Shown here piece after piece: positions 3,719 through 32,400 of a stretch of 64,000 bases of DNA. The stretch is from IMG/VR virus record IMGVR_UViG_3300027759_000044, one strand, 5' to 3'. The translations under genes were made by a program, and so were the position numbers. The stretch is from a virus. Taxonomy: Duplodnaviria; Caudoviricetes. The first letter of the stretch is position 1. Each line of letters opens with the position of its first letter. Under the pieces are notes generated by a model that worked only from the letters and a program-made list of their open reading frames with translations, was not told the DNA's origin and made no database searches.

Positions 3719-4547
3719 TACATATAGCAGTAACACAATAACATTGACTGGATCTGGAGGTAGTGGGATGAATTCTATCAGTCCGCACTCTATAAGCCCG
3801 TTATCTATAAATTCATTATCACATAACTCATCTATTACGTTGGATGATACTTATCTTAATAATTTGTTTAAAAACATTAATAGAAGTGACTATGTAAAAA
3901 GATATGAAGTAATAGAAGCCACTGAAGATATATTAGCATTAAGTGTTGCTTGGAAACGATTGCGTGATACAAAAAATGAATCAATACAAACTGGTATTAC
4001 TACATTATTAGATGATAACTTATTCAGAAAAATAGAAGAACCTGACAGGATTCGTGCTAATGAGATAAGAGATTATTTCAGCAAAAAAATTATGTTATGG
4101 ACTCTTAAAAGTGTTAAGTTATCCGCCTATAGACAAGACCTAAATAAATTTATTCATGGTGATGGCAAAAAAGTCACAGAAGAATTGTTACCACTCATTT
4201 ATAGATTGCCTGAGTTCTACGAATATGATGTTCAATTCGACCAGTTCAAAAGAGAAGTTAATGTAGAAATAACTAATTTTGGTAAGATAGATAGTGTTAA
4301 AAAAATCACTACACTAACTCCTGTTACAAGTTTTTACAAAACCAACAAACGGGTAAAACATTTTGAATATTGGTTAAAGGATAACAATGACAATGCTCAT
4401 TTGATTACAATCGAACCAAAGAATCCGTTAAAGCATATTTGGGATAAGATTTTTACTAATGGTCAATTACGTATTGAAGCTACATGCTACCCTAAAAAGT
4501 ATGATGAATTACAATACTTTCAGTTACTAAATTGGTCGGTAGCCTAA
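3711..4547 (+). CDS. Hypothetical protein with Ser-rich N-terminus
   Basis: TTG start with GGAGG RBS; 278-aa ORF. Confidence 0.8.
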   Translation: MANTYSSNTITLTGSGGSGMNSISPHSISPLSINSLSHNSSITLDDTYLNNLFKNINRSDYVKRYEVIEATEDILALSVAWKRLRDTKNESIQTGITTLLDDNLFRKIEEPDRIRANEIRDYFSKKIMLWTLKSVKLSAYRQDLNKFIHGDGKKVTEELLPLIYRLPEFYEYDVQFDQFKREVNVEITNFGKIDSVKKITTLTPVTSFYKTNKRVKHFEYWLKDNNDNAHLITIEPKNPLKHIWDKIFTNGQLRIEATCYPKKYDELQYFQLLNWSVA

Positions 4548-4549
4548 AT

Positions 4550-4578
4550 TTGACAATAAATGGCTTTTAGTATACAAT
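4550..4578 (+). promoter_or_regulatory. Class I sigma70-type (early) promoter, TTGACA-ATAAATGG
   Basis: TTGACA 4550-4555, 17 nt, TACAAT 4573-4578. Confidence 0.85.
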
Positions 4579-4605: not shown

Positions 4606-4818
4606 ATGGGTTACAAAGTTGTTGCTGACAAATATCAGATGGACGAAATGCGTACAAAGTATGGTCCACGTAACGGTCTAGAAGGACCGTTCAATTTCTC
4701 CGGAAGAGTGTTGTATTATGACAACAAAGAAGGCCAATACTACGATCCTAGGAGTGATTTCTACGTGGAACAGTCAGAAATGAATGAAATTCATGCTAGT
4801 TTGATAGCCAAAATTTGA
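4606..4818 (+). CDS. Hypothetical early protein
   Basis: 70-aa ORF with its own class I promoter. Confidence 0.8.
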   Translation: MGYKVVADKYQMDEMRTKYGPRNGLEGPFNFSGRVLYYDNKEGQYYDPRSDFYVEQSEMNEIHASLIAKI

Positions 4819-4843
4819 CAATAAATGGATTTGGCGCTATAAT
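4815..4843 (+). promoter_or_regulatory. Class I sigma70-type (early) promoter
   Basis: TTGACA 4815-4820 (contains the upstream TGA stop), ATAAATGG, TATAAT 4838-4843; 17-nt spacer. Confidence 0.9.
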
Positions 4844-4876: not shown

Positions 4877-5254
4877 ATGACTACAGAATTCAAATCTTGG
4901 GAAGAATTGACAACTTTAGAGCAGTATTCCAGCATCTACTGGGATATGTATAAAGATGCTTTTGGCATTCGTCCCCGAGGTATTGATACTTCTGCCTGGA
5001 CTGAAGCAGACTTTCAGGCCGAGTTTAAAGAGTTGGGTGAGGTCATTGACCGTGAAGAAAAGATCCGTGTTGCGGCACAAGAAAATGCAATGTTCTCTTT
5101 TGAGAAAAGGGTTGATGACCTAATCTTTTCAGGTGCCAGAGACCGTGCAACAGCAATTCGCTGGATCCACGAAGCTGAGGACACCCAAGGTGATGATGAG
5201 TATTTGTGCTATACTTTGGGCTTGCCCTACATGTACTTTCGTAAGGTAGCATAA
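4877..5254 (+). CDS. Hypothetical early protein
   Basis: 125-aa ORF (YWDMYKDAFGIRPR), own promoter, RBS AAGGA. Confidence 0.85.
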   Translation: MTTEFKSWEELTTLEQYSSIYWDMYKDAFGIRPRGIDTSAWTEADFQAEFKELGEVIDREEKIRVAAQENAMFSFEKRVDDLIFSGARDRATAIRWIHEAEDTQGDDEYLCYTLGLPYMYFRKVA

Positions 5255-5255
5255 T

Positions 5256-5284
5256 TTGACAATAAATGGCATTCATGCTATAAT
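5256..5284 (+). promoter_or_regulatory. Class I sigma70-type (early) promoter
   Basis: TTGACA 5256-5261, ATAAATGG, TATAAT 5279-5284; 17-nt spacer. Confidence 0.9.
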
Positions 5285-6483: not shown

Positions 6484-7512
6484 ATGGTTGAATTTAATAA
6501 CAAAGAACAGTTAGTATATTTTATGGTTACCAACTTAAGATTAAGTAGGTATGATATTAGATTCCTTCAAAATCTTGAAAAAATTATTCTAGTTAAAAAT
6601 CGGATAACTAGTAATCAATCAAATTTAGTTGATAAACTTATTGAAAAATATGAACGTCAATTTGTAAAAAATCAAATGTTTATTAAGGATTTATCAAAGC
6701 TTCCTTGGAAAACACTTGTAGTAGAAACTACCGATGAATATACATCCGCTCATATAGGTATCGTAGATGATAACGTCATTCTTAAAACACCCTATAATAA
6801 AGCATTTATTACAGCATTCAGGAACCTTAGTCAATCTAGTTTTGTATGGGATAATACAAATAAATACTATATTGCTGATTTGAGTACCTTTTCTTTAAAA
6901 CTAGCATTACGTATGACTGCAATTTTCTTCAATGAAATTAGGTTTAGTGACAATGTTAACAAAATATTAAACCAGCAAGAGTATTATAAAGATGTAAAAT
7001 ATTGGACACCCACATTAGTTTGCGTTAATGGGAATTATATGATAGCATCTACTAACTCTGCATTAGATGAAGCTATTAAACATATTACTTTAACTACAGA
7101 ATTAACAACATTAGCTGAACTAGTAAGATACGGAATTGAAATTGATAACAGTATTTTATTAACTGATGAAGAACGATTTGCTGGTTCATATAATCCTAAA
7201 GTAGAATTAACCAACATATGTGATATTGTTCCTTGGTTAAAAAACATCAAATGTGATTATGTTACTGTATCAGGTGTGGGACTATCAACTAATGTAAAGT
7301 TTAAAAATGATTTAAAACAAGCATTAGAACTTGCAGGAATACGTTATAACGATTCTGCAAGAATGATGATACACGATAATACAAGTAAGTATAAATTCCC
7401 AGTAGTAATTAAATTCAAATTGATATCTGATACAGATCATGCTAATACAGCAAAAGTAATCACCGTGGTAAATAGTCAACCAGTTAACTTGGAAAAGAAT
7501 GAAACAATGTAA
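6484..7512 (+). CDS. Hypothetical protein with possible HARP-like segment
   Basis: 342-aa ORF overlapping uvsW; PYNKAFITAFR...WDNTNKYY resembles the HARP pattern (inference). Confidence 0.75.
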   Translation: MVEFNNKEQLVYFMVTNLRLSRYDIRFLQNLEKIILVKNRITSNQSNLVDKLIEKYERQFVKNQMFIKDLSKLPWKTLVVETTDEYTSAHIGIVDDNVILKTPYNKAFITAFRNLSQSSFVWDNTNKYYIADLSTFSLKLALRMTAIFFNEIRFSDNVNKILNQQEYYKDVKYWTPTLVCVNGNYMIASTNSALDEAIKHITLTTELTTLAELVRYGIEIDNSILLTDEERFAGSYNPKVELTNICDIVPWLKNIKCDYVTVSGVGLSTNVKFKNDLKQALELAGIRYNDSARMMIHDNTSKYKFPVVIKFKLISDTDHANTAKVITVVNSQPVNLEKNETM

Positions 7513-8956
7513 AATAATCGTCAAAGACGAAGTGAATGTAAAGATTGAGGGTCTTGAACTATCGGAGCGCAAAGCACTGATGAAAATGTTTGAGTACGAA
7601 ATACCCGGAGCACGTTATCTACCTGCAGTAAGATTAGGTAGATGGAATGGTAAGGTAAGCTATTTCAGTTTAGCCGGTAGTACTTATATCAATCTACTAC
7701 CTGAAATACTCCCTTACCTAGACAATGCAGGATATGACATTGAACTAGAGGATTTAAGAGATTACACAACAACCTTTACATTCGACAAAGTGTCCGAGGA
7801 TACGTTCAAAAATAAGAACTGGCCTAAAGGTCATCCCAAAGAAGGTGAACCGGTAGTTTTACGTGATTATCAAATTGAACTAGTAAACAACTTTTTAGAA
7901 AACCCGCAATCATTACAGGAGATTGCTACAGGGGCAGGTAAGACACTAATGACTGCGGCACTAAGTTATACTATAGAAAAGTATGGTCGTAGTATTGTCA
8001 TCGTTCCAAACAAGTCACTGGTAACACAAACAGAAGCAGATTACATTAATCTAGGATTAGATGTTGGTGTATATTTTGGTGATCGTAAAGAATATAACAA
8101 AACACATACTATCTGTACTTGGCAAAGTCTTAACAATATGCTTAAGAAAACAAAAGCAGGTGAAGCAGAAGTGGATATTGGAGACTTCATTGAAGGTGTT
8201 GTATGTGTGATGGTTGATGAAGTACATATGGCAAAAGCTGACGCACTAAAAACATTGCTAACTGGTGTATTTGCTAAAGTGCCCATTCGTTGGGGATTAA
8301 CAGGAACTATCCCTAAAGCAAAGTTTGAAGCACAAAGTATATATGTAAGTTTGGGTAACGTTATTGGTAAACTATCAGCAAGTGAATTACAGGATCAAGG
8401 TGTATTAGCACGTTGTTATGTTAACATTATTCAATTACAAGATGGTAAAGAGTTTACTAACTATCAAAGTGAATTAAAACATTTACTAGAAGATAGTGAA
8501 AGATTGGATAAGATAGCTAGTTTAATAAATGGTATTAATGATACAGGTAACACATTGATCCTTGTTGATAGGGTTAATGCAGGAAAAGAGATTGTTAGTA
8601 GATTGCCCGGAAGTGTATTTGTCAGTGGTGCTACTAATATGAATGAACGTAAGGAAGAATATGATGAAGTTGCGACAAGCACTAATAAAATTATTGTGGC
8701 TACTTATGGTGTGGCTGCTGTTGGTATCAATATACCCCGTATTTTTAATCTTGTTCTCATAGAACCCGGAAAAAGTTTTGTTCGGGTTATACAAAGTATT
8801 GGACGTGGGATTAGAAAAGCTGAAGATAAAGACCATGTACAAATCTACGACATAACCAGTAGTTGTAAATTTGCCAAAAGGCATTTGACCCAACGTAAAG
8901 CTTTTTATAAAGAGGCTAATTACCCGTTTGATGTAGAAAAGTTGACTTATAGATAA
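7499..8956 (+). CDS. uvsW: SF2 DNA helicase, UvsW-like
   Basis: LRDYQ Q-motif, ATGAGKT, DEVH, GLTGT, QSIGRGIR. Confidence 0.92.
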   Translation: MKQCKIIVKDEVNVKIEGLELSERKALMKMFEYEIPGARYLPAVRLGRWNGKVSYFSLAGSTYINLLPEILPYLDNAGYDIELEDLRDYTTTFTFDKVSEDTFKNKNWPKGHPKEGEPVVLRDYQIELVNNFLENPQSLQEIATGAGKTLMTAALSYTIEKYGRSIVIVPNKSLVTQTEADYINLGLDVGVYFGDRKEYNKTHTICTWQSLNNMLKKTKAGEAEVDIGDFIEGVVCVMVDEVHMAKADALKTLLTGVFAKVPIRWGLTGTIPKAKFEAQSIYVSLGNVIGKLSASELQDQGVLARCYVNIIQLQDGKEFTNYQSELKHLLEDSERLDKIASLINGINDTGNTLILVDRVNAGKEIVSRLPGSVFVSGATNMNERKEEYDEVATSTNKIIVATYGVAAVGINIPRIFNLVLIEPGKSFVRVIQSIGRGIRKAEDKDHVQIYDITSSCKFAKRHLTQRKAFYKEANYPFDVEKLTYR

Positions 8957-9314
8957 AGAAAGTAAAGTAATGAAATTTATAGTAGATATTGATGGTACTA
9001 TCTGTACTGGAACTGAACAACGTGTATACGAAAATGCTAAACCTATTGTTGACCGTATTGAGTATTTTAATAAACTATATGATGAAGGTAATGAAATCCA
9101 TTATTGGACAGCACGTGGAAGTGGAAGTGGAATAAACTGGGATGAACTTACTATTAAACAATTAAATGATTGGGGTGCTAAGTATACAACCGCTAAAACG
9201 GGTAAACCCTCATATGATATATGGATTGACGATAAAGCATTTAATGTTGATAACTATTTTGATTCAATTAAATCCAATTACCCAATCAACAAATAAAAGT
9301 TGACTTATAGATAA
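8918..9314 (+). repeat. Direct repeat pair flanking the HAD gene (8937-8956 = 9295-9314)
   Basis: AAAAGTTGACTTATAGATAA is identical at both sites; AATTACCC at 8918-8925 and 9276-9283 has the same 358-nt offset. Confidence 0.85.
8970..9296 (+). CDS. Small HAD-superfamily phosphatase (capsule-biosynthesis phosphatase-like)
   Basis: Motif I DIDGT, motif II WTARG, KP and motif IV IDDKA. Confidence 0.85.
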   Translation: MKFIVDIDGTICTGTEQRVYENAKPIVDRIEYFNKLYDEGNEIHYWTARGSGSGINWDELTIKQLNDWGAKYTTAKTGKPSYDIWIDDKAFNVDNYFDSIKSNYPINK

Positions 9315-9328
9315 GAATGTGATAGAAT
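9300..9328 (+). promoter_or_regulatory. Sigma70-type promoter for the Hint-like / gp62 / DnaE-C operon
   Basis: TTGACT 9300-9305, 17 nt, TAGAAT 9323-9328 preceded by TG. Confidence 0.7.
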
Positions 9329-9334
9329 AACAAC

Positions 9335-9835
9335 ATGCGTATATTAACACTTGAAAACGAATTTTATAATTTAGAGACATTGCCGGAGGAAATAGACGAC
9401 CTTCGCTTTGCGATACTAGATAACAGTAATCCACAAAACGTAGATTATCATTACATCCCATTAATCTTTTTGGAATCATTTAACAGTCCTGCACTTGTAT
9501 TAAAGATCGGGAATCAAACTGTTAAGATGCCAGTAGATTGGCAAATATTGATTGGCGAACAAGAACACGGAGACTTAGAGACATTGCCTTTAACAAGTAT
9601 CAATGATAGAGGATTTAATGCGTTTGAGTTTAATCCTTTAACAAGCTTTAGCCCAAGTTTTGTACCAATTGAGATTGTAGATATTTACCATGATGTGACA
9701 TGGTATGCACCTAGATTAAAGAATGGCCAATTCTTATGTGTGCCATTAGATGATGGTCCTAAACCAAGATGTGTATATTTTGTAAAAGAGATTAGTCGTA
9801 ACTGTGAGATTGTAGATTATAGTCAGGCATTCTAA
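9335..9835 (+). CDS. Hypothetical protein, possible inactive Hint-fold
   Basis: CDS is clear; the beta-strand pattern resembles Hint blocks A/B/F but lacks the catalytic Cys, His and Asn. Fold call is inference. Confidence 0.7.
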   Translation: MRILTLENEFYNLETLPEEIDDLRFAILDNSNPQNVDYHYIPLIFLESFNSPALVLKIGNQTVKMPVDWQILIGEQEHGDLETLPLTSINDRGFNAFEFNPLTSFSPSFVPIEIVDIYHDVTWYAPRLKNGQFLCVPLDDGPKPRCVYFVKEISRNCEIVDYSQAF

Positions 9836-10425
9836 TGGCAACTAAAAAGAGTACTCCTATTGATGAGAAATTTGTAGCACAAGACTTTGACTTGTTTGAT
9901 GCTCTTACGGCTATGGACAAGAAAGACTATGCGTATTATGATAGGTTAACAGAAGAACAACAAAAGAAGTTTGTTCCCTATATGATGACACATTGGATGA
10001 GTGCTATCAAAGGTTCAGGAGATGTTCAAGGTTATTACTTGCGTAGTGTTGACTATCACGCAAATAAATATCTATTCAATGAATATGTACAGAAGCATCC
10101 TAAATTGCAATGGTATATGTTATGTGCTAGTAGTCCTGGATTAGGCAAACAATTTCATCAGTGGATTCCTCATTTAGGTAGTAAAGTAACATCATTAAAA
10201 GAGCCTGCTAAAGCAAAAGATATTAAAGAATATTACACTAAAATCTATCCCAAAGTAGATAGCGATGATATTGATGAGATAGCAAAAGCATTTGTACAAG
10301 AACATAAACGTAAATGCTATTTGGCAGAAACATACCCTAACTTAAAACAATCTGATATAGAAGTTCTTAGTCAATTGGTGACTGAAGAAGATATTAAGCA
10401 ATATGAAAAAGACCGAGGAAACTAA
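9835..10425 (+). CDS. gp62: Clamp loader small subunit, gp62-like
   Basis: FDALTAM..K...FVPYMMTHWMS...HPKLQWYMLC...GKQFHQWIP matches the gp62 pattern; size fits. Confidence 0.6.
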   Translation: MATKKSTPIDEKFVAQDFDLFDALTAMDKKDYAYYDRLTEEQQKKFVPYMMTHWMSAIKGSGDVQGYYLRSVDYHANKYLFNEYVQKHPKLQWYMLCASSPGLGKQFHQWIPHLGSKVTSLKEPAKAKDIKEYYTKIYPKVDSDDIDEIAKAFVQEHKRKCYLAETYPNLKQSDIEVLSQLVTEEDIKQYEKDRGN

Positions 10426-11101
10426 ATCAGCATATGGATGTGAGTTTTGTAAAGCTACGTTCCAACGTGAAAGTACTGTACTTAAACACATATGCGAACC
10501 TAAACGTAGATGGTTAGAACGTGACCGTCAAGGTAATCGTGTAGGTTTCCAAGCTTGGTTACAGTTTTATAAGAAGAATACTGCAGGTACAAAGAATCGT
10601 ACATATGAAGAATTCATTAAGAATCCTTATTACCTTGCGTTCATTAAGTTTGGTCTATATTGTGTAGAGATTAAATGTATCAATGTTAGTAGATTTAGTG
10701 ATTGGTTATTAAAGAATTCAATTCGCATTGACAATTGGAGACAAGATACTAATTACACAAAGTTCTTGTGTGAATATTTGCGTATTGAAGATCCGTTAGA
10801 TGCGATACATCGTAGTATTGAAATAACAATAGAAAAAGCTGAAGCTGAAAAGATTCAAAGCAGAGATTATTTACGTTATGGCAATCCTAACAATATATGT
10901 TATGAGATTGCTAGAGGACGAATTAGTCCCTGGATGTTATATCAAAGTGATAGTGGTGTCCAATTCTTAAGTACATTACGTGATGACCAGCAGAAGATGA
11001 TTATGGATTACATTAATCCAGAGCAATGGGCATTAAAGTTCAATCGTGATCCTGCGAATGTTAAACAAGTTAAGGAATTATTAAATGCCGGCGGCTATTA
11101 A
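10403..11101 (+). CDS. Hypothetical protein with N-terminal C2H-C zinc finger
   Basis: CEFCKATFQRESTVLKHIC. Confidence 0.8.
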   Translation: MKKTEETKSAYGCEFCKATFQRESTVLKHICEPKRRWLERDRQGNRVGFQAWLQFYKKNTAGTKNRTYEEFIKNPYYLAFIKFGLYCVEIKCINVSRFSDWLLKNSIRIDNWRQDTNYTKFLCEYLRIEDPLDAIHRSIEITIEKAEAEKIQSRDYLRYGNPNNICYEIARGRISPWMLYQSDSGVQFLSTLRDDQQKMIMDYINPEQWALKFNRDPANVKQVKELLNAGGY

Positions 11102-11758
11102 AATACCAAAAACTATTCACATAGTTTGGATAGGTGACGAATCTAAAATACCTAGTGATTGTATTAAAACTTGGGTCGATCTTAATACTACCTGGATAGT
11201 TAAAGTCTGGGGTAACACTGAATATTATAACTATCCATGGAGAAATCGAGAGGCTATGGACAAACTTTGGGATGATGACAAGTTTGAAATTAGTCGTAAG
11301 AGTGGTATTGCTGATATTATGCGCTATGAAATTTTATACAACGAGGGTGGATTTTGTATTGATGCCGATTCAACATGTATCAAACCATTAGAAGATTGGT
11401 TATTTGACGCAGAAGCTTGTGCTGGATGGGAAAATGAAACAGCGCGGCCAGGACTTATTGCTGTTGGATACATGGCATCAATTCCCAATAATTTATTTTT
11501 TAACAGAATTATTGATGAAATATATAACGATCCTGATATTACAGATAATTTACCTTGGATCAAAACCGGACCACTTAGATTAACCAACGCATATAATTCG
11601 CTAAAATACAATAATCTAAAAATCTGGCCATCACACTATTTTATACCAACTCACTATACCGGGATATCCCATACAGGAAATGGTCCGATATTTGGTATAC
11701 AAGAGTGGATGACTACATTTGCTTCAGCAAGGAATTATTAAATGTCGGCGGGTACTAG
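11072..11758 (+). repeat. 30-nt imperfect direct repeat flanking the glycosyltransferase (11072-11101 / 11729-11758)
   Basis: AAGGAATTATTAAATGCCGGCGGCTATTAA vs AAGGAATTATTAAATGTCGGCGGGTACTAG; 26/30 identical; offset 657 equals the GT ORF length. Confidence 0.9.
11085..11741 (+). CDS. Glycosyltransferase, DxD sugar-binding (GT32/Och1-like)
   Basis: IPKTIHIVWIG, VKVW, ADIMRYEILYNEGGFCIDAD, TGP. Confidence 0.9.
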   Translation: MPAAIKIPKTIHIVWIGDESKIPSDCIKTWVDLNTTWIVKVWGNTEYYNYPWRNREAMDKLWDDDKFEISRKSGIADIMRYEILYNEGGFCIDADSTCIKPLEDWLFDAEACAGWENETARPGLIAVGYMASIPNNLFFNRIIDEIYNDPDITDNLPWIKTGPLRLTNAYNSLKYNNLKIWPSHYFIPTHYTGISHTGNGPIFGIQEWMTTFASARNY

Positions 11759-11936
11759 AGTTCGTATATCCTGGAAAAAGGGAGATATAATCGATTGGAA
11801 TGAAACCTGTGCCTGGGTAGTAGAACAATTTGGATTACCCGGTGACAAGTTTGAAACACATGCTACTGAAGATTATATGGATTTTTACTTCAAAGATGAA
11901 AAAGATGCCATTCTATTTGAGTTGACCTGTGGCTGA
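11742..11936 (+). CDS. Small protein, FxF..E.D...FxLxW family copy 1
   Basis: Ends MDFYFKDEKDAILFELTCG. Confidence 0.75.
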   Translation: MSAGTRVRISWKKGDIIDWNETCAWVVEQFGLPGDKFETHATEDYMDFYFKDEKDAILFELTCG

Positions 11937-12144
11937 CGTTATCTTATATATTACTGCTAAAAGAACTATGGAAATAGGACATGAGTTACGAAACATGGGT
12001 TATGTTCAAGGAGTTGATTTTGATTATGCTTATTACCAAGAAAAATATGACAATTTTAGCCATGAACCTATTGTAAAACGACATGCAAGGTTTACTTTTT
12101 ACAATGATAGTAATGCTAGTTACTTTGCACTAAAATGGCAATGA
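11929..12144 (+). CDS. Small protein, same family copy 2
   Basis: Ends ARFTFYNDSNASYFALKWQ; GTG start overlaps copy 1. Confidence 0.75.
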   Translation: MADVILYITAKRTMEIGHELRNMGYVQGVDFDYAYYQEKYDNFSHEPIVKRHARFTFYNDSNASYFALKWQ

Positions 12145-12377
12145 TAATTGAACATTATGATTATGCTGTAGGTTGGGAAAATACTAAACCCGGCTGGCAT
12201 GAATGTACTGTACATGTTAAACATCTTGACAAATATAATGAAATAGTTAAATGGTTAGAAACTAATATAGGTAAACATGAAAGACATTGTAGATGGGGCA
12301 TAACTGATGATGACCTAATCAGCTTTAAGTTTAGATATGAAAAAGATTACATTTTGTTTACGTTGAGGTGGAGTTGA
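12135..12377 (+). CDS. Small protein, same family copy 3
   Basis: Ends ISFKFRYEKDYILFTLRWS. Confidence 0.75.
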   Translation: MAMIIEHYDYAVGWENTKPGWHECTVHVKHLDKYNEIVKWLETNIGKHERHCRWGITDDDLISFKFRYEKDYILFTLRWS

Positions 12378-12643
12378 TGGCATCAATACCTCAAATACAG
12401 GATTATGATGATGACGATCCAAATATAGAACAACGTAAAAATCGTTGGAATTATTGGGAAGCATTGAAAAAAGTTCGTAAAGAATATATGGCACAGAATA
12501 AAGAGTTTGACGCATATGATTTTGAGGATTACCTTACTGGACAATATGGGTTAAAAATGAACATAGTTAATGGTAACATAACTGACGGTTATGAGATTGT
12601 TGACGAAAAGAAGTATCTAATATTTTTATTAAAATTCCAATGA
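12368..12643 (+). CDS. Small protein, same family copy 4 (start may be ATG 12377)
   Basis: Ends YEIVDEKKYLIFLLKFQ; AGGTGGAG SD precedes ATG 12377. Confidence 0.75.
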   Translation: MELMASIPQIQDYDDDDPNIEQRKNRWNYWEALKKVRKEYMAQNKEFDAYDFEDYLTGQYGLKMNIVNGNITDGYEIVDEKKYLIFLLKFQ

Positions 12644-12996
12644 ATCAATTATTTCCCATAACCTCTGTACAAAACGATAAATTTCTAGTATCATGGCCTA
12701 AATGGGAGAACATCCGACAGTTTGACACAAAGAAAAGATTATTGGCTGTGTTGTTTGCTGATATCGGTAGTGATGAAGTTGGTATTGCAATAATGGCTGG
12801 TGTACTAAGTGGTGGAGAACTAGATGTTATGTGGATTAATTCAAACACTTGGGCACAAGATGTTAACGGCGACTATGCTAGATACCTAGAAGATATGTAT
12901 GATATCAAAGGCGTAGTATTTAATAGTGAAGATGAAGCAACAAAGTTTCAAGATTACTTAGAGAAGAAATATATTTGGAAAACATTACAGGCATAA
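12640..12996 (+). CDS. Small protein, divergent family member 5
   Basis: ATGA overlap; VVFNSEDEATKFQDYL near the C-terminus. Confidence 0.75.
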   Translation: MNQLFPITSVQNDKFLVSWPKWENIRQFDTKKRLLAVLFADIGSDEVGIAIMAGVLSGGELDVMWINSNTWAQDVNGDYARYLEDMYDIKGVVFNSEDEATKFQDYLEKKYIWKTLQA

Positions 12997-12997
12997 T

Positions 12998-13540
12998 ATG
13001 GCACAAGATATAATGATTGATATGGAAACGCTTGACACAAGTCCTGATTGTGTTATACTAACTATTGGCGCAGTAAGATTTGATCCTAAATGTAGTGGAG
13101 TTGTTGAGCGATTAGAATTGCGACCTACAATTGAAGAACAAACAGAAATTTATAATAGGAGTATAAATGAAGATACATTACGATGGTGGAGTGAGCAAAG
13201 TCCTGAAGCTCTTGAAGAGGCTATGGGAGAAACTGGACGAATTCCGTTTAGAGAATGTATGGAGATACTTTATAAGTTTTGTTGGAATCGTCGTGCTGTG
13301 TGGAGTAATGGTGCATCATTTGACGTGGTTGTGGCAGAGTCGGCCTGGAGAAATCTTGAAATGCGAACCCCGTGGCCTTTTTATACAGTCAGAGATACTC
13401 GTACCTTGTATGAGATTGCCGGAGTCAAATTAAAAGATGGCGGGCATGTCACCAGTCATAAAGCAGTAGAAGATGCTGAACGACAAGCCATTGTTGTACA
13501 AAAAGCGTATACCAAATTAGGATTAAGTAATGAGAATTGA
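12998..13540 (+). CDS. dexA: DEDDh 3'-5' exonuclease, T4 DexA-like
   Basis: ExoI IDMET, LRWWSEQS, ExoII WSNGASFD, RDTRT, ExoIII HKAVEDA. Confidence 0.85.
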   Translation: MAQDIMIDMETLDTSPDCVILTIGAVRFDPKCSGVVERLELRPTIEEQTEIYNRSINEDTLRWWSEQSPEALEEAMGETGRIPFRECMEILYKFCWNRRAVWSNGASFDVVVAESAWRNLEMRTPWPFYTVRDTRTLYEIAGVKLKDGGHVTSHKAVEDAERQAIVVQKAYTKLGLSNEN

Positions 13541-32218: not shown

Positions 32219-32400
32219 TGAGCGATATTCAAGACCGAATGGAAGAACTAATTAAGCCAATAGACCAGCAAATTATGATGTGTGATGATAGGCGTGATTT
32301 GCTTATGTTTAATTGTGCTATGTTACAGCGTGTAAGAGAATTATTTGATGCGCTAGTAGGAGAAGAGGGTAGAAAACAAATGTTTAAGGATTTAGTATGA
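32218..32400 (+). CDS. Hypothetical protein
   Basis: TAATG and ATGA coupling on both sides. Confidence 0.7.
   Translation: MSDIQDRMEELIKPIDQQIMMCDDRRDLLMFNCAMLQRVRELFDALVGEEGRKQMFKDLV

Follow-up and report, generated by a model that had tools for sequence, protein, structure and literature searches.

Two old insertions of glycan-related genes, each flanked by a duplicated gene end, in a jumbo phage sequence

How can a foreign gene come to lie between two resident genes that share sequence, and leave both of them readable? The question is raised by an open reading frame of 218 codons in a 64,000-nucleotide stretch of phage DNA (Caudoviricetes), the whole of which is referred to here as the window. 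The frame is part of a tightly packed run of genes, all on the plus strand, which comprises a UvsW-like helicase gene (7499-8956; Pfam ResIII, Helicase_C and UvsW_N), a gene for an HAD-type phosphatase of 108 residues (8970-9296), genes for proteins of 166 (9335-9835) and 196 residues, a gene for a C2H2-like zinc-finger protein of 232 residues (10403-11101; PHROG 11058), the 218-codon frame itself (11085-11741) and a tandem array of small paralogues, the first of which encodes 64 residues (11742-11936). Homologues of the zinc-finger protein are present in 158 IMG/VR stretches and, more distantly, in the jumbo phages PA5oct and Atu_ph07 and in Rak2-like coliphages; a C-terminal Gly-Tyr is kept in all relatives. 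A megablast search of positions 9000-13000 against GenBank phages gave no match, and the relatives used below are metagenomic only. As detailed below, the helicase, 166-residue, zinc-finger and 64-residue genes are residents of this run, and the 218-codon frame and the HAD gene were inserted.

The first-pass annotation of this region had described a 30-nt repeat that brackets the 218-codon frame, and we recovered every element of that description on reading the sequence again. Copy 1 (11072-11101) forms the last 30 nt of the zinc-finger gene, and copy 2 (11729-11758) lies at an offset of 657 nt. The copies agree at 26 of 30 positions, with one mismatch in the first 23 nt and four matches in the last 7 nt; all three mismatches in this last part are synonymous in the zinc-finger frame, in which the copies read KELLNAGGY* and KELLNVGGY*. 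Copy 1 contains a Shine-Dalgarno sequence (AAGGA, 11072-11076), a spacer, the ATG at 11085 with which the 218-codon frame begins, and the end and stop of the zinc-finger gene. Copy 2 contains the working Shine-Dalgarno sequence, ATG (11742) and first codons of the downstream gene, and supplies the stop of the 218-codon frame, a TAA (11739-11741) that abuts this ATG. Because the TAA-ATG lies inside the repeat, the equality between the offset and the length of the frame (657 nt) is geometric and not an independent coincidence. Occurrence at chance frequency, which had been named as an outcome that would speak against the earlier reading, is not what we found: with up to three mismatches allowed, the 23-mer occurs exactly twice in the 64 kb, against 0.00 expected (100 shuffles), and the score of the repeat is 20, compared with maxima of 13 among 2000 random window pairs and 17 in 30 shuffled windows. 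Elsewhere in the window, repeats as strong as this are limited to intragenic fibre-like repeats and an early-promoter cassette (at 4540, 4805 and 5253).

The 218-codon frame is an insertion. A scan of IMG/VR with the zinc-finger protein gave 80 loci (64-100% amino-acid identity), none of which encodes the glycosyltransferase specified by the frame or the HAD protein. In 63 of the 80, the zinc-finger gene overlaps the next gene by 17 nt; these are the empty-site alleles whose absence would have told against an insertion. The empty junction is nearly the same as copy 2 and as the first 23 nt of copy 1. Copy 2 is 1 nt away from the commonest native junction, and in copy 1 the first 23 nt are the native junction, the last 7 nt differing from it only at the three synonymous sites of the zinc-finger gene. 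The empty junction is found even in relatives with no more than 64-69% zinc-finger identity, and the empty state is therefore ancestral. A crossover between the copies in the 23-nt core would yield precisely the empty junction that is widespread among relatives, in agreement with the earlier proposal that recombination between the copies restores both neighbours.

Filled alleles, with the insert at the identical position, are present in four independent ENA assemblies (L164-L167), which excludes an assembly chimera or artefact. These assemblies are about 92.5% identical to the window in nucleotide sequence, share its left joint and encode a glycosyltransferase homologue of 93% identity. Because lineages that have diverged in this way share site and left joint, the insertion predates their split. 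Relative to this second filled lineage, dS of the glycosyltransferase gene is about 0.2, against 0.29-0.34 in the flanking genes, and its dN/dS is 0.13-0.18, from which it follows that the gene has been maintained by selection; this purifying selection argues for a functional protein. In the second lineage copy 2 has drifted and now reads KVLLNANGY* in the zinc-finger frame. The first-pass claim that both copies encode the zinc-finger end is correct for the window, but the peptide of copy 2 is not maintained as such. The lone C/T difference in the 23-nt core resides in one copy in the window and in the opposite copy in the second filled lineage. Only a few close lineages carry filled alleles, which occur alongside empty ones in backgrounds that have diverged to a similar extent.

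The inserted frame encodes a member of the GT32 family (PF04488; 31.8 bits against a gathering cut-off of 23, E 2.4e-7), with a DXD motif (D93-A94-D95) and all of the 50 invariant columns common to 11 homologues. Its foreign part is shorter than the frame. Outside homologues all align to residues 6-211 only, and tblastn with residues 207-412 of a 798-residue multidomain protein from another freshwater phage (L082) delimits the core to 11100-11717, the sole part that has homologues outside. The five N-terminal and about seven C-terminal residues show no homology to the family. The start and the first three to five codons are those of the downstream gene, the first 10 nt of the frame being identical to the start of that gene in empty alleles, and the last four to five codons and the stop are those of copy 2. 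The AAGGA at 11072 is the Shine-Dalgarno sequence of the downstream gene, and the TAA is natively in frame directly before the downstream ATG in all relatives. Borrowing of the resident ribosome-binding site and start, as first proposed, is therefore borne out, and extends to the stop.

Stand-alone members of the family, such as the bacterial proteins annotated ‘glycosyltransferase family 32’ or ‘OCH1-like’, are of the same length class (about 210 residues) and share PF04488, the DXD motif and the invariant residues. They differ from the protein described here in their termini, beginning with M-x-IPK and extending 3-9 residues further at the C-terminus, and are at most 58% identical to it. The nearest relative outside the filled alleles, at 71% amino-acid identity, is an internal domain of the L082 protein, which retains an internal Met at the start of the domain; no closer donor was found in IMG/VR or the JGI metagenomes. 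Judged from these sequences, the fragment may have come from either a multidomain fusion or a stand-alone gene. The nearest candidate donors of this gene and of the HAD gene are too distant for the joints to be placed to the base or for microhomology to be seen.

A second insertion with a duplicated gene end, suspected earlier 2 kb upstream, proved to be real. The HAD gene (PHROG 1238, E 6e-27) has its own start and lies between two copies of the 3' end of the helicase gene, whose cores (8937-8956 and 9295-9314) are identical at 20 of 20 positions, at an offset of 358 nt. The distance from the helicase stop to the next ATG is 378 nt in the window and 11-20 nt in relatives, which corresponds to an insert of 358 nt; in 64 relatives the HAD gene is absent and the junction between the helicase gene and the next gene consists of the 11-20-nt spacer only. 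An allele about 90% identical to the window (L168) carries the same HAD insert, with a 62-nt deletion inside the HAD gene, and an empty glycosyltransferase site. Since L168 is filled at one site and empty at the other, the two events were independent. In this allele the middle section of copy 2 is closer to the helicase end than it is in the window, which indicates that the original duplication was about 39 nt long and that its middle drifted in both lineages. An 8-nt match, AATTACCC, 11 nt upstream of the core could have been taken for chance, but the L168 allele identifies it as a remnant of the longer duplication. Copy 1 thus originally spanned 8918-8956, and copy 2 (9276-9314), which the tail of the HAD gene enters, consists of 8 nt that were kept, 11 nt that decayed and the 20 nt of the perfect core. 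Both insertions are old and common to diverged lineages; neither is recent.

The next gene after the HAD insert, encoding 166 residues, has a sigma-70-like promoter at 9300-9328 (TTGACT, a 17-nt spacer and TAGAAT, with a TG), the best promoter match in 8700-12200, and its -35 element lies inside the duplicated helicase end. Relatives have TTGACA-N17-TATAAT at the same place. Of copy 2, the promoter part alone is conserved, and the rest drifts at a roughly neutral rate.

We then asked how common gene-end duplication is among insertions in this phage group. The survey covered every indel of 150 nt or more that lies between conserved neighbours in the region from the helicase to the exonuclease gene (about 8 kb) at the 80 loci. 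Besides the two window inserts, which alone rose above the null, there were about 25 distinct indels without such repeats; one further case, a 17-nt match between paralogue ends, was seen in L037. The remaining indels, without flanking duplication, contain HNH or GIY-YIG homing-endonuclease genes, extra small paralogues or unrelated reading frames. When the comparison was extended to about 55 kb with two long relatives, neither the window-specific inserts at 1750-1943 and 32223-32399 nor four relative-specific inserts had a flanking duplication. One relative has a 329-nt insert between 38-nt copies of the early-promoter cassette. Gene-end duplication is a minority pattern, found at the two junctions where signals of the neighbouring genes physically overlap; the other indels, where the junctions do not overlap, carry none. 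The duplicates span these shared signals (Shine-Dalgarno sequence, ATG and stop at the glycosyltransferase site; upstream stop and downstream promoter -35 at the HAD site) and begin or end at them. Because the duplicated stretches coincide with the shared signals, selection on survivors accounts for their boundaries and no special mechanism is needed. The first-pass annotation had suggested a repeated gene-capture mode that regenerates the end of the target gene; this view is not supported in that form, given about 25 plus six other indels without repeats, two events that are both old, and boundaries that selection explains. The data do not demonstrate a dedicated capture mechanism or a new mobile system.

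For the insertions, duplications, borrowed signals, age and selection described above, we consider the following account probable, though well short of certain: two separate, old, illegitimate insertions without a recombinase, made through staggered joints, and subsequent selection for intact neighbours and against long repeats. On two separate occasions, foreign coding DNA would have come to lie in closely packed gene junctions of a jumbo phage from fresh water, joined perhaps by microhomology-mediated repair or by template switching in the course of recombination-dependent replication. Staggered joints would have duplicated 23-39 nt of the target. The arrangement of the neighbours would then have been decisive, with the zinc-finger stop 17 nt inside the next gene, the Shine-Dalgarno sequence of which sits in the coding end of the zinc-finger gene, and, at the helicase site, the promoter -35 of the next gene within the last helicase codons. 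Since the neighbours share sequence, an insertion must duplicate the stretch that they have in common if both are to remain functional. Duplicates of greater length would soon disappear from a phage that is proficient in recombination. The glycosyltransferase fragment would have arrived without a usable start or stop, to be read from the Shine-Dalgarno sequence and ATG of copy 1 and to end at the TAA of copy 2. Both genes would have persisted under purifying selection as accessory genes of low frequency, and probably spread among lineages by ordinary homologous recombination of their flanks.

Besides the distance of the candidate donors, two observations count against this account. The 7 nt that follow the 23-nt core recreate the Gly-Tyr-stop of the zinc-finger gene with three synonymous differences, for which we roughly estimate a chance of ~0.1-0.5%. 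Possible explanations are imperfect, microhomology-guided joining, origin from a diverged allele ending in TATTAA, or strong selection; zinc-finger alleles with this ending exist among distant relatives. In addition, two such events 2 kb apart, both with glycan-related cargo, exceed what pure accident predicts. In relatives, homing-endonuclease genes occupy these junctions, which suggests that breaks are frequent there; the sites may be insertion hot spots.

The duplicate could alternatively be an attachment sequence and not a scar. Recombination between the copies would then release a circle of 657 or 358 nt with one copy, which the phage's own recombination machinery would insert again into the corresponding junction of another genome through one crossover, as in a short-homology exchange of cassettes. 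Cassettes between direct repeats of 20-38 nt do occur in this phage group, including the 329-nt insert mentioned above, and T4-type phages form mini-circles between flanking cassettes of promoter and stem-loop (PMC2839356). The coexistence of filled and empty alleles in similar backgrounds would fit such traffic, and the C/T difference in opposite copies of the two filled lineages fits copy-to-copy exchange. However, repeats unique to their site would let a circle re-enter the same junction only, which ordinary recombination of the flanks would achieve as well; the origin of the first graft would be left unexplained, and the copies of the second lineage have drifted apart without loss of the insert. 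The data are compatible with exchange through circles but do not require it, and we regard it as possible but doubtful. In an extended form, which we consider a rather improbable speculation, the junction of stop, Shine-Dalgarno sequence and start would be a portable and reversible attachment sequence in jumbo phages with overlapping genes: foreign fragments of reading frames, down to one domain excised from a multidomain protein, would be joined in frame by microhomology to its start and stop and moved as recombinase-free mini-circles among co-infecting genomes. If true, this would be a general way to capture genes and domains, by ‘ORF-grafting’.

It seems very unlikely that an enzyme (a transposase, a homing endonuclease or an integron-like system) made the duplications. 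Such enzymes may act close by: the junction after the helicase gene holds HNH homing-endonuclease genes in either orientation in relatives, GIY-YIG-like genes occur at nearby junctions, neither kind being present at these places in the window, and double-strand breaks are probably frequent in the region. Yet these endonuclease-bearing inserts of relatives themselves lack flanking repeats, and the window inserts contain no nuclease or recombinase reading frame, only the glycosyltransferase or the HAD frame each, unlike a free-standing homing-endonuclease insertion. No terminal inverted repeat, attC-like palindrome or Rfam RNA family was detected at or in the inserts. The ends of the two inserts are unrelated, with no common motif seen, and the lengths of their duplications differ (23-30 nt against 20-39 nt). 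An integron cassette would be expected to show an attC-like inverted repeat at a boundary, and a transposon, IS element or MITE to show inverted repeats and a fixed duplication length. Hardly credible, finally, is the reverse history, in which both genes were present from the start and exact deletions between repeats already in place produced the empty alleles time and again. Loss between the copies would indeed yield exactly the empty junction, but the start and stop of the glycosyltransferase gene are built from that junction, which must have come first, and the empty form occurs in distant relatives whereas the filled form is found in a few close lineages. Our preferred account is thus that of illegitimate insertion followed by selection.

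Single accessory genes between genes that are adjacent in relatives are familiar from lambdoid phages and mycobacteriophages as morons, gained by illegitimate recombination without a mobility gene. Classical morons carry their own promoter and terminator, in contrast to the glycosyltransferase gene, which has no expression signals of its own and relies on resident ones; no terminator-like hairpin was found at this site or at the HAD site. The events described here most closely resemble the insertion with long target duplication known for bacterial restriction-modification units (Nobusato et al., 2000, in Furuta et al., 2010, NAR, PMC2853133). That article describes direct duplications of target sequences unique in the genome, longer than 30 bp (46 to about 400 bp), variable between sites and in some cases overlapping the 3' end of the upstream gene; the units are portrayed there as having no transposase or integrase, and the mechanism is given as unknown (PMC2853133). 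The likeness lies in presence or absence between close relatives, a single repeat copy at the empty site (63 zinc-finger and 64 helicase junctions), a repeat unique within the 64-kb window and no mobility gene. Differences are the host, a jumbo phage, the cargo of single genes for glycan enzymes, duplicates of 23-39 nt and, at one site, an in-frame graft onto the start and stop of a neighbour. Against the criterion of >30 bp (Furuta et al., 2010), the duplicate at the glycosyltransferase site measures 23 nt if clean and 30 nt at 26/30, and that at the HAD site 20 nt if perfect and about 39 nt in its probable original extent.

The next closest phenomenon is the modular shuffling by PeSLs in T4-type phages, in which single small genes of hyperplastic regions are gained and lost without a recombinase (PMC2839356; PMC4122927). 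PeSLs are dispersed, pre-existing cassettes of promoter and stem-loop at many loci, between which excision can give mini-circles (Arbiol et al., 2010, PMC2839356; Comeau et al., 2014, PMC4122927). Here too, short direct repeats in a large virulent phage carry expression signals, the HAD repeat holding an early-promoter -35, and the 329-nt insert of one relative is PeSL-like. The repeats at the two window inserts differ in that they are local duplicates of gene ends, made at insertion; each is a unique pair with exactly two copies within the 64-kb window and not a dispersed element, and the glycosyltransferase repeat contains neither a promoter nor a stem-loop.

The locus is an unusually well-resolved natural record of gene gain in a large virulent phage, in which one can see the site in its empty state, two filled lineages that have diverged, a duplicate in decay and a sibling case that has become a pseudogene. 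It illustrates that a foreign coding fragment without expression signals can become a selected gene by means of the ribosome-binding site, start and stop of its neighbours, and why overlapping neighbours make target duplication obligatory. We see in it no new mobile system and no new class of enzyme, but a clear-cut instance, in a phage, of a recombinase-free type of insertion that is already known. Insertion with long target duplication, described for restriction-modification units of bacteria, is thereby widened to accessory genes of phages, and the locus offers a concrete case on which models of circles and of scars can be compared.

Both cargoes are related to glycans, as the earlier reading had it. 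The GT32 protein likely modifies glycans of the host envelope or of the virion. A kinship with clostridial toxins was considered and rejected: the weak N-terminal similarity to the glucosyltransferase domains of large toxins covers residues 7-48 only, a shared nucleotide-sugar-binding motif. For the HAD protein, the homologue P0121 matches at 98%, and no donor closer than 78% was found outside the filled alleles in IMG/VR and the JGI metagenomes. Homologues in other phage contigs lie between genes for a cytidylyltransferase, a PfkB kinase, a cupin and an epimerase, in what appears to be a heptose or nucleotide-sugar cluster; of this pathway the window has no further gene. Together with the resemblance to a capsule biosynthesis protein (PDB 9iqw, E 1e-10), this points to a likely role as a sugar-phosphate phosphatase of a capsule or heptose-type pathway.

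At the junction between the UvsW-like helicase gene and the 166-aa gene, the window carries the HAD phosphatase gene, whereas related metagenomic phage contigs carry an HNH homing-endonuclease gene at the same junction (L057, 1634-2289; L031, 2255-2933, and likewise L030 and L032), with the genes of L057 and L031 in opposite orientations. In L057, the HNH insert itself supplies a TTGACA-N17-TATAAT promoter to the downstream gene. The HAD gene of L168 (469-771), a relative with an empty glycosyltransferase site, has an internal deletion of 62 nt that truncates the product to 73 aa, and thus descends from the insertion event seen in the window but is decaying. Within window positions 9300-9337, the -10 element TAGAAT ends at 9328. 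Only 6 nt separate it from the start codon at 9335 of the 166-aa gene, which has no Shine-Dalgarno (SD) sequence. RNA from the promoter at 9300-9328 would be leaderless or near-leaderless.

The 23-nt core of the repeats flanking the glycosyltransferase gene contains a single C/T difference, which is found in opposite copies in the two filled lineages: the window has C at 11088 and T at 11745, and L164 has T at 1304 and C at 1961. This swap could be caused by copy-to-copy conversion or by recurrent transitions. Outside the filled alleles, the closest relative of the window's glycosyltransferase is the GT32 domain of a 798-aa protein from another freshwater phage (L082, 1208-3604; also present in L081, L169 and L170). 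This protein has an N-terminal domain of unassigned family, then the GT32 domain, another region in its centre and TPR repeats at its C-terminus.

Small paralogues ending in F.L(R/K)W occupy window positions 11742-12996, and extra copies have been gained and lost in the related contigs L006, L027, L037 and L042. The exchange point in this array seems to be a conserved gene end that overlaps the next start.

GIY-YIG-like endonuclease ORFs of 246 aa (L006, 2651-3432; also L005, L007, L008, L023 and L051) and 204 aa (L184, 256-957) are inserted in relatives at other gene junctions, without flanking duplication. Comparison with long related contigs revealed two window-specific single-ORF inserts of 63 and 60 aa (1750-1943 and 32223-32399), also without flanking duplication; the former has taken over the resident SD and given new upstream sequence to the downstream gene.

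An early-promoter cassette with the core TTGACAATAAATGG occurs at three places in the window (4540-4567, 4805-4832 and 5253-5270). In the relative L187 (reverse strand, 2476-2891), two 38-nt copies of the cassette flank a 329-nt single-gene insert, an arrangement that is cassette shuffling in a jumbo phage, similar to that of the promoter and stem-loop (PeSL) cassettes of T4-type phages.
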